Positions 51,001-57,000 of a stretch of 64,000 nucleotides of DNA are shown in pieces. The stretch comes from Escherichia coli. Lineage in GTDB: Bacteria > Pseudomonadota > Gammaproteobacteria > Enterobacterales > Enterobacteriaceae. The stretch lies in the NCBI RefSeq assembly GCF_013315695.1, contig NZ_CP054353.1; one strand, given 5' to 3'. Every line of letters begins with the position of its first letter. The first letter of the stretch is position 1. The position numbers are program-made.

Positions 51001-54000
51001 CGTCTTGTAGTTTATCCATGCATATCTGCTTGATGATGAGGTTTTTATTTAAGGTATGGTTTTGTGTTTTTTCTGTATTACATGTCAGGTATTTTAAAGA
51101 ATTATTTTTCAGATGGTGGAAAGAACCATGGCATTTAAACACTATGATGTTGTCAGGGCGGCATCGCCGTCAGACCTTGCGAAACGACTGACACAAAAAC
51201 TGAAGGAGGGGTGGCAGCCATTTGGCAGTCCGGTGGCCATCACGCCTTATACCCTGATGCAGGCCATTGCGGCGGAAGGTGATGTCACCACACCTGTGGT
51301 GGTGAAGCCGTCGGATGGAGAAGGCGCAGTTATCAGCAACACCAGCAACCCGGAGTATTACTTTGTTGTTGCCCTGGCCGGGCAGTCAAACGGTATGGCG
51401 TATGGTGAAGGGCTTCCGCTGCCGGAGACATATGACCGTCCGGACCCGCGTATTAAACAGCTGGCGCGTCGCAGCACTGTCACGCCGGGTGGTGCGTCCT
51501 GTAACTACAATGACATTATTCCTGCGGACCACTGCCTGCATGATGTTCAGGATTTGAGTAAGTTTTCACACCCGAAAGCCAGCGCAGCTCAGTATGGATG
51601 CGTGGGGCAGGGATTACATATCGCGAAGAAATTGTTGCCGTTTATTCCGGCGAATGCCGGTATTCTTCTGGTTCCGTGCTGCCGTGGTGGTTCTGCATTT
51701 TTGGCGGGCGATGAAGGTACCTTCAGCGAATCCACCGGCGCAAGCGAGACCTCGGCACGCTGGGGTGTAGATAAGCCACTGTACAAGGACCTGCTTACCC
51801 GTACTCAGGCCGCACTGAAGGCCAACCCTAAAAATATTCTGCTTGCAGTGGTCTGGATGCAGGGCGAGTTTGATTTGAAACAGGGTGCATACGCCACTCA
51901 GCCGGGGCTGTTTGATTCCATGGTGGAAAAATATCGTTCTGACCTGTCGGAATTCGGAGGTCAGTGTCTCGGGGGCTCTCCGTCATCAGTTCCCTGGATT
52001 TGTGGCGACACGACCTACTACTGGAAGCAGACTTATTCTTCGCAATACGATGCGGTGTATGGTGCATATAAGACGAAATCCGCAAAAAAAATCTTCTTTG
52101 TGCCGTTTATGACGGATGAAAACGGGCGAAATGTGGGTACCAACGAGCCGTCAGAAGATCCGGATGTTGCGGATATTGGGTATTACGGAGCCGGTGGTCG
52201 AACGGACGCCAAAACCTGGACGACGGCTGACCGTAAAACGCATTTTGGATCATGGGCACGTCGTGGGATTATTTCCGACCGTCTGGCAACGGCGATTCTT
52301 GTGCATGCCGGGAGAACCGCTGAATTCATTACCGGAAAACAGCCTGATACGGTGAAGCCCACCGGACCTTCCGGTGAAGGTACGGAGAGAGAGCCGGAAG
52401 GTCCGGTCAGTAACCGAACCCTGATGAGTCTGCTGGCGTCCGGCGAAGACCTGGCATCACAGGGCTGGCGCTATTATCACAAACCGGCGAGCGGAGACAA
52501 TGTTAACAAAAACATTGCTGAAGCGGTGGTCAGTGATGCGGGGGCTACGGGAGGTAAGGCCCTGCAACTGAATAAACCGGAAAACCACATCTGGTTTCTG
52601 GAGCATGATGCAGCCGGGCAGGGGGCAGAGTTGCTGAAGAAAGGAGGACGTGTGAGCGTACGGTTTAAGTTGCCGGGTTCACTGGTGCCGAATCAGTTTG
52701 CCCTGGGCATTTACTGGCAGTTGTCGTCCCTGCCGGAGGGAGTGACGCTGGCAGAGGAAGGCAACGACATGCTGATGTCCTTCTTTCTGCAGACGGATGC
52801 GACGAACCTGAACGCGATGCACCACAAGAAGCCGAATGCGAAGCTGGAAACGTTCGGGGTCTTTGATAACGGATGGCACACACTGGCTTTTGAGTTTGCC
52901 GGAAACAACAGCATTCAGGTGACGCCGGTACTGGATGAGAAACGGGGGACGCCGTTCACACTGGTGAAATCTCCGGCATCAGGGGCGGCGGACAAACTGC
53001 AACTGACAGGCATATCAAAGGCGGCGACATATACGCTGCTGATTGACAGTGTGAAGGTGGAAGTGAACAACGCGGATGCCGCGGCATGATAAAAAAAGGC
53101 CGCCAGCAATGAAGGAAAGGGATGAACTGTGTCCACTACATGAATGCTGGCGGCTGGTAAAACGACCACGATGACACCGAAGTTTGCGATATTTTTCTAC
53201 AAAAATAAGTAAATCATGTCAACTATCACGGTGAGAAACCATGACATTTCTGAACCAGTTAATGCTGTACTTCTGTACGGCAGTCTGTGTTATGTATCTT
53301 CTTTCGGGTGGGTACAGGGCAGTGCGCGATTTCTGGCGCAGGCAGATTGATAAAAGGGCCGCTGAGAGAATCAGCGCCAGTCAGTCAGCCGGAAGCAAAC
53401 CCGAAGATCCGCTCATTCCGTAGTCACTTTCTTGACAACACCTTTCAACGAGAAAATCCCATGTCAGAAATCACATCCCTGGTCACTGCTGAGGCAGTGA
53501 AGGAAGTCCTGCGCTCTGAAGAAGTCCTGAGCGCACTGAAACAGAAACTCCGCCAGAACCTTGAGTCGCGTCTTGATGCAGAAGTGGATGCCATTCTGGA
53601 TGAGCTGCTGGGCGTACCAGCGGTTCCGGAGCCGGAAGGTATCGCGGGTGACGGGAGTGCTTCAGATGGCGGTGAACCCACACCTGACAGCGACATGATG
53701 ATGTAAGCCTGCGCAAGGGACCATCGGTGTGTGCCGGTGGTCTTTATATTGTTGTGAGCTTCCGGATAACGGGAGACGGGGTATGTACCAGATGGAAAAA
53801 ATCACAACAGGTGTGTCATACACCACGTCAGCGGTGGGAACGGGCTACTGGTTCCTGCAGTTGCTGGACAGGGTTTCCCCGTCTCAGTGGGCGGCAATAG
53901 GCGTGCTGGGGAGTCTGCTGTTTGGGCTGCTGACATATCTGACTAACCTGTATTTCAAAATCAGAGAGGACCGGCGTAAGGCGGCGCGGGGAGAGTAAAG

Positions 54001-57000
54001 TGATGAATAAAAAATATGAACTGGTTGTTAAGGGGATAAATAATTACGGGGATAAGGTTACTGTTACTGTGAAGCCGGAAGGTGACGGGCAAGCGTCGCT
54101 GTTGTTGCCAGATGTGGCGATTAGTCTTGACCGTACTGAAGGTGCCACGCTGGAGTTTTACGAAGCTGAGGCGAAAAAGCAGGCGAAGCAGTTTTTCATG
54201 GATGTTGCTGCCGGGTTATGTGAATGGAACGAACCGTTGCCGGAAAAGCGCCCCGTAATTTTAGAGGCGCAGGATGTGTTGATAACCTACAAAGGAAAGC
54301 TACCGGGAAGAATTACTTGTTCTCTGAAGATGCCGCCGTCAACACTGCGGTCAGAAAAAGATGATGTTGAATCACGTATTGAAAAACTGGAGAGCTACGT
54401 CGTTGAGCTGAATAAGAAATGGTCGATATTGGTGCCTTCTGGCGATGAAAAGCAGTTTGCTGCGTTTGACGATTATTGTCGGAAAGTGATGAGCAGAAAT
54501 CTCGCAGAGTGTTTCAGTATTCATAATGATAATTTCAGTGAGCTGGAATGGGAGTGTAACCGGCCATCCTTTGTTGTATCCGGTGATGCTGGGAAAATAA
54601 CCATCTCAGAAAATGGGAAAGTAACACCTCCATCGCACCAGCACAGTGAGGAGCTCATTGAATTTGCCATTGATTACCTGAAGAACAATAAAAAGCAGGG
54701 GCTGATGAAGCGCGTTGGCCGTTGCATGGGATATCTTCAGGTAGCCGCTGAGATTGAAGCGCTGGCCAGTGGTGCTGATAAGGATGCAATTGTGCGGGAG
54801 GCTCTTCTTCGTGATTTTAATACTCCACCCTTTAAAAAAGTGCCGGCTTACTGGCTTCATCCGGGGCTGACTTATCTTAAAGTGCGTATTTAGTGGGCCA
54901 GGGACAGCGGCTGAATATTTAATATATCCATGAACACCAAAATCAAATACGGCCTGTCGGCTGCCGTTCTGGCGCTGATTGCCGCTGGTGCGCCTGCGCC
55001 TGACATTCTCGACCAGTTTCTGGATGAAAAGGAAGGCAACCACACCACAGCATACCGTGATGGTGCAGGTATCTGGACCATCTGCCGTGGTGCCATCATG
55101 GTGGATGGCAAACCTGTCGTTCCGGGCATGAAGTTGTCGAAGGAAAAATGCGACCAGGTTAACGCCATTGAGCGTGATAAAGCGCTGGCGTGGGTGGAGA
55201 AAAACATCAGAGTGCCGCTGACCGAACCCCAGAAAGCGGGGATCGCGTCATTCTGTCCGTACAACATTGGTCCCGGTAAGTGTTTCCCGTCGACGTTTTA
55301 TAAACGAATTAATGCAGGTGATCGCAGGGGAGCGTGTGAGGCGATTCGCTGGTGGATTAAGGACGGTGGCAGAGACTGCCGTATCCGCTCAAACAACTGT
55401 TATGGTCAGGTATCCCGTCGTGACCAGGAGAGCGCGCTGGCGTGCTGGGGAATCGACAGATAAGCAGAATATTTTGCTGAAAAATAAGGCATGGCCACGC
55501 GGGCGGATAACACGAAATCCTGCGAACTGGCGAAACGTAAGTGAATAAAAGTAAAAACCCCGTTTGTTGGCACCAAGCGGGGTTTTGTGTTTCTGACCTT
55601 GAGTAAGGCAAGGGAGAACATGGCGAAGTATAAACGAATTCTGTTGAGGTTGACTATGAAAAACGGCCTTGAACTGAAAGCGCCTGTAACTGATGACATC
55701 AGCAGAGCACTGGCTTTTGCCATTAAGTGGGTGGCGGTCGGTGTTGCTGTGTCCCCGATGCTGTATGGGCTGGCAAAACTGGTCATTGCGTTGAAATCAT
55801 GAAGGGAGGATTAAGCATGCCAGACAAACTCATAACGCTGGCGAAGATCCTCTGTGTAATTGTCGGCATTTCATTTTCACTAATGCTGGTTGCTCTTTTT
55901 CTTTCCATGGCCTGGATGATGTTGTCTTCGTCGGGGTTGCTGGGGTGAACATAAACCGAATGCTTTCCGCGTTTATCGTTATTCTGCTGGTGGCCTGTGG
56001 TGCGCTGTGGATGGCAACAGACCATTACCGTGATAACGCGATTACCTACAAAGCGCAGCGCGATAACAAAGCCAGTGAACTGAAGCTGGCGAACGCAACC
56101 ATTACTGATATGCAGGTGCGCCAGCGCGATGTTGCTGCGCTCGATGCAAAATACTCGAGGGAATTAGCCGATGCGAGAGCTGAAAATGAAACTCTTCGCG
56201 CTGACGTTGCCGCTGGTCGTAAGCGCCTGCGGATCAACGCCACCTGTCCAGGCTCCGTGCGTGAAGCCCCCACCACCTCCGGCGTGGATAATGCAACCGG
56301 CCCCCAACTGGCAGACACCGTTACACGGGATTATTTCACCCTCAGAGAGCGGCTGATGACGATGCACAAGCAACTGGAAGGGGCACAGGACTATATCCGC
56401 ACTCAGTGCCTGAAATAAGTTTTGTTGATGCGCCGTATCGTCGCTATATTCCCTCATTAACAGAGACCGCAGCCCGACAGGGAGACTCCTCTGCGCGAGT
56501 GTGCGGGGATAATTAAAAACGATGCTCACCGGGTTTTTACCGCGTTAATGATTCGCGGGTTTATCCCGGTGCGATGGTGGAAGAAACAGGAAGCTGTATT
56601 ACAGAAAGTGCTACTACTGTATCCCGATGCGATGTATGTAATGTGAGTCAGATAATGGCACAGGATGTGGTGATGTGGCAGTCTGGAACACAGGATATAT
56701 TGTCAGAATAAGACCCGTAGGAATAAAAATGAAAAGACGCCTTTTACTACTTTTTCTGTTATCTGTCCTGGCAGTGGGATGCTCGCAGCAAAAAGCTGAT
56801 GAGCCCCGGCAATTAGTGACGGTGTATCCACGATATCCGGAATATGCTGCAGCAAATTATATCAAGGGGCTGGTTGAGGTTAAGTTCGATATTGGTGCTG
56901 ATGGGACTGTGACACGGATCGTTTTTCTCCGCTCAGAGCCTCATAATTTGTTTCGTGATGAAGTGGTGAAGGCCATGGCGAAATGGCGATTTGAAAAGAA

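Follow-up and report, generated by a model that had tools for sequence, protein, structure and literature searches.

Which gene occupies the space between the holin and the endolysin in the lysis cassette of an Escherichia coli prophage, and what might its product do there? The question is raised by a 64,000-nucleotide stretch of contig NZ_CP054353.1 (RefSeq assembly GCF_013315695.1; hereafter, the window), in which an initial annotation, made from the sequence alone, had described an open reading frame (ORF) of about 296 codons between the holin gene and a signal-arrest-release (SAR) endolysin gene, and had called it unrecognised. We found that this ORF is almost certainly an intact YdfR/DUF1327 family gene of the long form. 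The function that we favor for it, with a probability of roughly 35%, is that of an optional, cytoplasmic late accessory protein that would act on RNase E or RNA and would not belong to the lysis machinery.

The ORF was present and intact at 54003–54893 on the + strand (ATG at 54003, TAG at 54891–54893; 296 codons plus stop), with an alternative in-frame GTG at 54000 that would lengthen it to 297 codons. The 54003–54893 product has a mass of 33.4 kDa and an isoelectric point (pI) of 6.0; neither a transmembrane segment (maximum 19-residue Kyte-Doolittle mean, 0.75) nor a signal peptide was found in its 296 residues, and it is predicted to be cytoplasmic. Several points of the initial annotation were borne out, namely the ORF itself, the lack of a transmembrane segment, the 36-nt spacing to the endolysin ATG at 54930, and a guanine-cytosine (GC) content below that of the neighboring genes (46.1%, whereas the holin has 55.1%, the endolysin 54.7% and Rz 54.9%, all close to 55%). 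The lowest GC content within the ORF, 41%, was in its middle segment. The distance from the holin, given as 5 nt, needed correction: because the holin stop codon (TAA) occupies 53996–53998, the gap to the ATG is 4 nt (AGTG).

The label "unrecognised" did not survive database searches, nor did the accompanying remark that no motif could be placed. Pfam DUF1327 (PF07041) matched residues 1–100 against model positions 1–88 of 93 (E = 4.5e-40, 136 bits), and phrog_1085, whose annotation is "unknown function", matched the protein from end to end (residues 1–296 against profile positions 1–296, E = 1.5e-189); no NCBIfam model matched the ORF. The exact 296-residue sequence occurs on 966 public contigs under the name "YdfR family protein", or "Phage protein" in UniRef (A0A376Q4W6). 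The segment spanning holin (S), ORF and endolysin (R) is 99.2% identical to that of E. coli MSB1_4I, and was recovered at a coverage of at least 80% in 556 of 5426 complete E. coli genomes. DUF1327 DNA was detected by megablast in 2652 of the same 5426 genomes, about half, and the C-terminal domain of the long form in about 14% of complete genomes. Since databases and the K-12 reference genome already contain the gene, together with its family and its position, we regard all three as known and the function as unproven. Literature searches added little: "DUF1327" gave one incidental mention, YdfR family, PF07041 and b1555 gave noise only, and essQ, rrrQ and ydfR gave nothing useful. In the passages retrieved from a comparative paper on Shiga toxin (Stx) phages, the lysis cassette is described as S, R and Rz/Rz1, without mention of a slot gene (PMC8136144).

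Alignment of the protein with its relatives showed three modules, which we modeled with AlphaFold2 (AF2), using a 29-sequence alignment for the full-length protein. The first is the N-terminal DUF1327 domain (54003–54302, + strand), which is acidic (pI 5.5 for residues 1–113) and has a folded core at residues 5–76 made of three β-strands and a long helix, with a predicted local distance difference test score (pLDDT) of 70–91 over residues 1–70. A linker at residues 73–120, disordered or of low confidence, leads to a variable, helical, coiled-coil-like middle segment (residues ~121–170; 54363–54512, + strand) with helices at residues 122–146 and 149–170 (pLDDT 55–65). Profile comparison with the Protein Data Bank (PDB) returned only weak coiled-coil noise for the protein, including matches of the middle segment to the liprin and BST2 coiled coils (E = 0.03–0.4). 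Alignments show that insertions and deletions in this segment give rise to variants of 268, 287, 296, 329 and 333 residues.

The third module is a conserved C-terminal domain of 114 residues (residues 183–296; 54549–54890, + strand; pI 8.9). Folded alone, it was predicted with a pLDDT of 84 and a predicted template modeling score of 0.75 as a three-stranded β-meander followed by four helices. It carries the motifs GRCMGxLQVAAEIEA, DxPPFK and WxxPGxxYLK and the invariant columns L44, G57, R58, L63, Q64, A66, P94, K96, W102, P105 and Y109 (domain numbering); in the window protein all three modules stand in order and the motifs are intact. The ratio of nonsynonymous to synonymous substitution rates (dN/dS) of this domain was 0.16–0.36 against three relatives, indicating purifying selection. 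The domain belongs to no Pfam family, and PDB and AlphaFold Database (AFDB) searches gave it no fold relative outside its own family, AFDB50 returning only "phage proteins" of E. coli, Shigella and Salmonella. An exhaustive HMMER search among 1.84 billion representatives gave only 26 matches at E<1e-3. As judged from these searches, the C-terminal domain is rare and restricted to its family.

Two other origins for this build were considered and rejected. Both terminal domains open with three strands followed by a helix, and the C-terminal domain was compared with DUF1327 as a possible diverged duplicate; the hhalign probability was below 1%. A frameshift fusion of two genes was rejected, since homologues at 35–46% identity, which AFDB places in Salmonella, have this three-part build too. 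Since phrog_1085 matches end to end, the exact sequence is found on 966 contigs, the C-terminal domain is under purifying selection and the architecture is kept at that level of divergence, 54003–54893 can be taken as a real gene and not a chance ORF.

Public annotation often hides this gene. RefSeq entries annotated by the Prokaryotic Genome Annotation Pipeline (PGAP) frequently contain only the first 112 codons, as a pseudogene named "YdfR family protein, incomplete, missing C-terminus". We found the ORF uninterrupted in two records where PGAP calls it partial, NZ_CP023820.1 (locus positions 1955–2845) and NZ_LR898874.1 (1804–2694). Such a call leaves about 555 nt unannotated, the conserved C-terminal domain included.

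Comparison with homologues revealed that the modules are shuffled. K-12 YdfR, from which the family takes its name, aligns with the N-terminal domain over about 85 residues at 44% identity and shares the conserved core DRxEGAxLEFYEA; in an alignment of five family members, 35 columns were invariant. The N-terminal domains of the distant homologues are likewise homologous to DUF1327 (hhalign probability 88.9%, E = 2.4e-6). Short forms with only the N-terminal domain (103–114 residues) are by far the commonest. Among 80 IMG/VR loci with the C-terminal domain, 37 carry the fused form (296 residues in 28, 329 residues in nine), and six are split. A 213-residue gene for the middle and C-terminal modules can come directly after the holin, with a separate 75-residue DUF1327 gene behind it. 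One homologue, P0133, has the C-terminal domain by itself, on a short contig. Furthermore, P0058 (305 residues, on 275 contigs) joins DUF1327 and a helical segment to an unrelated C-terminal module; the N-terminal domain therefore combines with alternative C-terminal modules. As a separate observation, phage 86 and the split-gene loci contain an extra ORF of 95–104 residues on the opposite strand, between the YdfR-family gene or genes and R (4085–4399, − strand, in locus L002 and 4902–5189, − strand, in locus L005, in locus numbering), which is absent from the window.

We characterized the slot itself by comparing its two flanking genes across phages. On the left is a class II (S21-type) holin of 71 codons (53783–53998, + strand), which matches phrog_9876 (E = 2e-40) and phrog_20, "holin" (E = 4e-32), is labeled "class II holin family protein" by PGAP in near-identical loci, and has a dual start at Met1 (53783) and Met4 (53792), the latter giving 68 residues. 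On the right is a SAR endolysin, an R21-type lysozyme of 177 residues (54930–55463, + strand; phrog_7 endolysin, E = 4e-62; PGAP label "lysozyme" in near-identical loci), whose N-terminus, GLSAAVLALIAAGA, is Gly/Ala-rich and whose E35-x8-D44-x5-T50 spacing fits a SAR lysozyme. The same order is found in the Qin prophage of K-12, where it reads essQ (holin), ydfR, rrrQ (lysozyme) and rzpQ. A DUF1327 gene lies in this slot in H-19B, phage 86, Stx2_95, Stx2_EH2201, BP-4795, YYZ-2008 and many Stx1a and Stx2c phages; in H-19B, the classical Stx1 phage (AF034975.3), it is a short ORF between S and R at locus positions 1501–1836 that is unannotated in the GenBank record. In total, DUF1327 was present in 101 of the 436 phage records that carry the holin type of the window; the 5426 complete E. 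coli genomes contain 12,378 S-R places. The slot can also be empty: phi191 and phi-O153 have a holin 100% identical to that of the window and R starting 4 nt after S, and 933W, whose holin is 98.5% identical, likewise has only 4 nt between the holin stop and the endolysin start. These comparisons of gene order show that the YdfR/DUF1327 family habitually fills a variable slot between S21-type holin and SAR endolysin in lambdoid and Stx-type prophages of E. coli, and that the window gene is accessory, not a core lysis gene, and dispensable for the function of its holin.

The initial annotation had taken R directly after S as the norm for lambdoid phages; this is true of the lambda and 933W type, whereas S21-type cassettes are often filled, as in K-12 Qin, H-19B and phage 86. 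It had also allowed for the gene being routinely present between S and R with a known role. Routine presence in characterised phages was what we found, with no established role attached to it. Its view of the gene as a moron expressed with the late and lysis genes stands in part, in that the gene is accessory, lies in the late operon and has a lower GC content. An autonomous moron would have its own sigma-70 promoter and intrinsic terminator, and neither was found in a scan for consensus patterns, which is a weak test: the + strand gave no promoter-like site from 50.2 to 54.0 kb, and the only terminator candidate was a weak hairpin at 54852–54869, inside the 3′ end of the ORF. Because there is no promoter-like site and no convincing terminator, and because the ribosome-binding site lies inside holin codons, the gene does not look like an autonomous moron and appears to be embedded in the late operon.

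The left junction of the slot is constant. The holin ends in GGAGAG-TAA and the next gene starts 3–5 nt later; the junction GGAGAGTAA-N4/5-ATG is common to the window, 933W, H-19B, K-12 and the split-gene locus L005, and what follows it is R in 933W, ydfR in the window, H-19B and K-12, and the gene for the C-terminal module in L005. Hence the next gene, whichever it is, inherits the Shine-Dalgarno sequence embedded in the holin, which for the window gene is GGAGAG (53990–53995) in the last holin codons. In IMG/VR loci with the C-terminal domain, the gene starts 3–4 nt after the holin stop in 67 of the 78 in which a holin was found; of the 79 loci where the gap to the endolysin could be measured, 67 have 36 nt and 12 have 42 nt. 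The right side differs between filled and empty slots. While R of 933W uses the holin-embedded GGAG, the endolysin of filled slots begins with other codons and is preceded by an AU-rich leader of its own that lacks a Shine-Dalgarno sequence; in the window this leader is the 36-nt spacer at 54894–54929 (+ strand), which ends in AATATTTAATATATCC immediately before the endolysin ATG. On this anatomy, the gene would share the Q-dependent late promoter with the lysis genes and be translated from the Shine-Dalgarno sequence in the last holin codons, and its product, soluble and cytoplasmic, would be made in the final minutes before lysis.

These junctions bear on the suggestion that the protein itself has little or no function and that the ORF is mosaic filler that recombination left at the S-R junction, or a spacer acting in cis to uncouple endolysin translation from the holin. 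The empty slots with unchanged holins are consistent with it, as are the different R leaders of filled and empty slots, the many truncated, split and rearranged versions, and the treatment of the long form as a truncated pseudogene by PGAP. Filler, however, would not be expected to keep a C-terminal domain under purifying selection, with a confidently predicted fold (AF2 pLDDT 84), nor a three-domain architecture whose motifs are still present at 35% identity in relatives assigned by AFDB to Salmonella, and the ORF is intact where PGAP calls it partial. We consider an absence of protein function very unlikely.

The position of the gene makes a second possibility worth weighing, in which a cytoplasmic regulator of lysis timing, by analogy with P1 LydB or T4 RIII, would delay or sharpen triggering by binding either the cytoplasmic C-terminal tail of the pinholin or the SAR endolysin while it is tethered to the membrane. 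Close and distant homologues alike lie inside or beside a lysis cassette, and the gene is translationally linked to the holin. When the gene is present, the endolysin loses the holin-embedded Shine-Dalgarno sequence, so that the content of the slot also alters the translation context of R. In addition, the Keio ydfR mutant is in the hit lists of a screen for envelope integrity with chlorophenol red-β-D-galactopyranoside (Paradis-Bleau et al. 2014; PMC3879167 supplement), a phenotype that could, however, arise if the kanamycin cassette has a polar effect on rrrQ, the SAR lysozyme gene downstream. Against such a regulator, the identical holins of phi191 and phi-O153 work without a slot gene, as does the near-identical one of 933W in the same layout. 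The distant homologues, which also lie in the late region, directly precede a holin-lysozyme-Rz set or stand between Q and a holin of a different family, Phage_holin_2_3. No PHROG "lysis" family and no Pfam lysis-regulator family was matched, and as regards holin-associated regulators and antiholins, we found no homology and no obligate co-occurrence with the holin. A role in lysis timing thus appears unlikely, though it is the alternative to which we give the most weight.

A third possibility is that the gene is cargo, expressed late or by read-through in the prophage, that benefits the lysogen or counters defence, by superinfection exclusion, anti-defence activity or a host-directed effect. 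A GC content of 46% between flanks of 55% is in keeping with this, and so is the polymorphism of the slot, in which presence and absence are combined with N-terminal-only, N-middle-C, middle-C-only and split forms and with the alternative C-terminal module of P0058. The dN/dS of the N-terminal domain, 0.5–0.8, is compatible with an arms race, and the region from Q to the lysis genes is a classical cargo zone that in the window holds an IraM-like gene and an STnc100 small RNA (sRNA). Yet no PADLOC defence model matched the protein (best hit PbeC, E = 0.049, 9.9 bits), three homologues tested against PADLOC-DB gave no match, and there is neither a promoter-like site nearby nor a convincing terminator. 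Moreover, K-12 ydfR has almost no RNA sequencing reads under standard growth (PMC13232886). Taken together, these observations make a cargo function quite unlikely.

Our preferred reading, action on RNase E or RNA, takes its starting point from work on the K-12 relative. Göpel et al. (2026; PMC13232886) recovered residues 1–72 of K-12 YdfR three times in a bacterial two-hybrid screen, and the full-length protein was two-hybrid positive with Rne 1–597, the catalytic half of RNase E (PMC13232886). Strep-tagged YdfR co-purified FLAG-tagged Rne 1–598, together with abundant DNase-resistant nucleic acid (PMC13232886). By extension, the acidic DUF1327 domain of the window protein may dock onto the catalytic half of RNase E, onto RNA, or onto both, as reported for K-12 YdfR residues 1–72; the helical middle segment may oligomerise the protein; and the basic, family-specific C-terminal domain may act as a second binding module, for RNA or protein. 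Late in infection, the modules together would tune the decay of RNA by RNase E; the long late transcript, for instance, might be protected. That the holin is used unchanged in phages without the gene, and that distant homologues accompany other holins, fits a conserved host factor as the target and not a specific lysis protein.

Several observations weigh against this reading. The RNase E data concern a 103-residue K-12 protein that is only 44% identical, and the interaction was seen by two-hybrid assay and by co-purification from lysates, in which RNA could form the bridge. Overexpression of YdfR changed few transcripts and left growth unaffected (PMC13232886). No finding connects the C-terminal domain with RNA or with RNase E, and searches of the PDB and AFDB gave no significant fold similarity to known RNA-binding domains or RNase E regulators. 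The dN/dS of the N-terminal domain is fairly high (0.53–0.78). Furthermore, 30 of the 80 IMG/VR loci with the C-terminal domain carry a 185-residue form of the middle and C-terminal modules right after the holin, without DUF1327; the C-module can therefore stand alone, and the picture of a docking domain plus an effector may be wrong. Finally, the persistent location beside the lysis genes is not explained by an RNase E model.

A bolder version of action on RNase E was also considered, in which the S-R slot is a site for modular late proteins that hijack the RNA degradosome, DUF1327 docking onto RNase E and the interchangeable C-terminal modules (the 114-residue domain of the window protein, the alternative module of P0058, or none in the short forms) serving as effectors or adaptors. 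We regard it as a long shot. If it were true, RNase E would be retargeted or blocked just before lysis, tuning late transcripts, including stx in Stx phages, and the C-terminal domain would represent both a fold and a class of degradosome adaptor that are new.

These results concern a very common prophage gene family, located in the lysis region of E. coli prophages and Stx phages, that is still without an explained function. Because the gene lies in the lysis and late region of Stx-converting prophages, an effect on late-transcript stability or on lysis timing would bear on the release of phage and toxin. The K-12 RNase E result provides a testable hypothesis for the whole YdfR family. What is new here is the recognition that the three modules of the long form make up a conserved architecture and that its C-terminal domain belongs to a family not yet defined, which could be established as a new one, together with the mis-annotation of an intact gene by PGAP and the systematic module shuffling in the slot.

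Other features of the window were recorded alongside. Downstream of the endolysin, Rz (55945–56418) and Rz1 (56171–56356) complete the cassette, and between R and Rz is a second variable slot (55464–55944) that holds a 71-residue ORF (55587–55802; phrog_1115, of unknown function) with a strong terminator-like hairpin ahead of it (55554–55586); 933W, phage 86 and phi191 have the anti-repressor gene ant there instead. After Rz/Rz1, a 126-residue ORF (56675–57055) begins like a lipoprotein and ends in a TonB C-terminal domain (TIGR01352, 46.9 bits; cut-off, 27.1); PGAP names it "TonB family protein" in near-identical loci, and phage 86 carries bor at that place. On the other side of the cassette, a Q-like gene (48403–49224) is followed closely by tRNA-Met(cat) and tRNA-Arg(tct) (49368–49443 and 49544–49618); Stx phages carry tRNAs in the same place downstream of Q. 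Between these tRNAs and a NanS-p-like esterase gene lies an island of low GC content (49700–51100; 31–33%) at the position that stx occupies in Stx phages. It contains no stx, and it holds the STnc100 sRNA (50317–50506, + strand; 132 bits) and the IraM-like anti-adaptor gene (50532–50867, − strand; NF007393, 158.7 bits against a cut-off of 121). In the early region of the prophage, Rfam matches at the gathering level identified the DicF sRNA (38262–38313, − strand) and a sok antitoxin RNA of the hok/sok type (45834–46005, + strand).

At the start of the window, positions 1–32755 resemble the yersiniabactin High-Pathogenicity Island and adjoin tRNA-Asn (32680–32755, − strand). This region includes a TonB-dependent siderophore receptor (2359–4380, − strand), an AraC-type regulator (23740–24699, − strand), a P4-type integrase fragment (31256–32218, − strand) and giant ORFs of the size of nonribosomal peptide synthetases and polyketide synthases. 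Since a stretch of the size of irp1 is broken into three ORFs (7990–11571, 11430–12671 and 12678–17354), frameshifts or sequencing errors are suggested there.

Known systems resemble the window gene to different degrees. P1 LydB and T4 RIII are soluble cytoplasmic lysis regulators encoded beside the holin; they are positional analogues, and PHROG and Pfam give no homology between them and the window protein. Phage modulators of RNase E that alter RNA decay include phiKZ Dip, T4 Srd and T7 gp0.7, which act early in lytic phages, whereas the window gene lies in the late operon of a temperate phage. Among the host proteins, the adaptor RapZ also binds to the catalytic half of RNase E, to which K-12 YdfR was mapped (PMC13232886). 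The likeness of the window protein to Dip, Srd, gp0.7 and RapZ, all small RNase E-binding proteins, is one of functional analogy only, in the sense of working alike, and for K-12 YdfR itself it extends to binding alone. Modulators with solved structures, such as phiKZ Dip, showed no sequence or fold similarity to the window protein in the searches made, and because it is not a member of these structurally known groups, the idea of an RNase E modulator rests only on the K-12 experiment.

The relatives by descent are considerably closer. K-12 YdfR (b1555, P76160; Qin prophage) shares the slot, the N-terminal domain and the holin-embedded ribosome-binding junction with the window gene; its 103 residues comprise the N-terminal domain and a short tail, to which the window protein adds the helical segment and the 114-residue C-terminal domain. 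The window prophage differs from Stx phages in having the IraM-like gene and the STnc100 sRNA in the stx position, and no stx. Its slot gene nevertheless has direct counterparts in two of them, with the same architecture in the same slot: gp05 of the Stx2-converting phage 86 (YP_794052, 268 residues) at 82% identity over aligned positions, and BCI50300 of Stx2_95 (329 residues) at 87%, both of which differ from the window protein by insertions or deletions in the middle segment.

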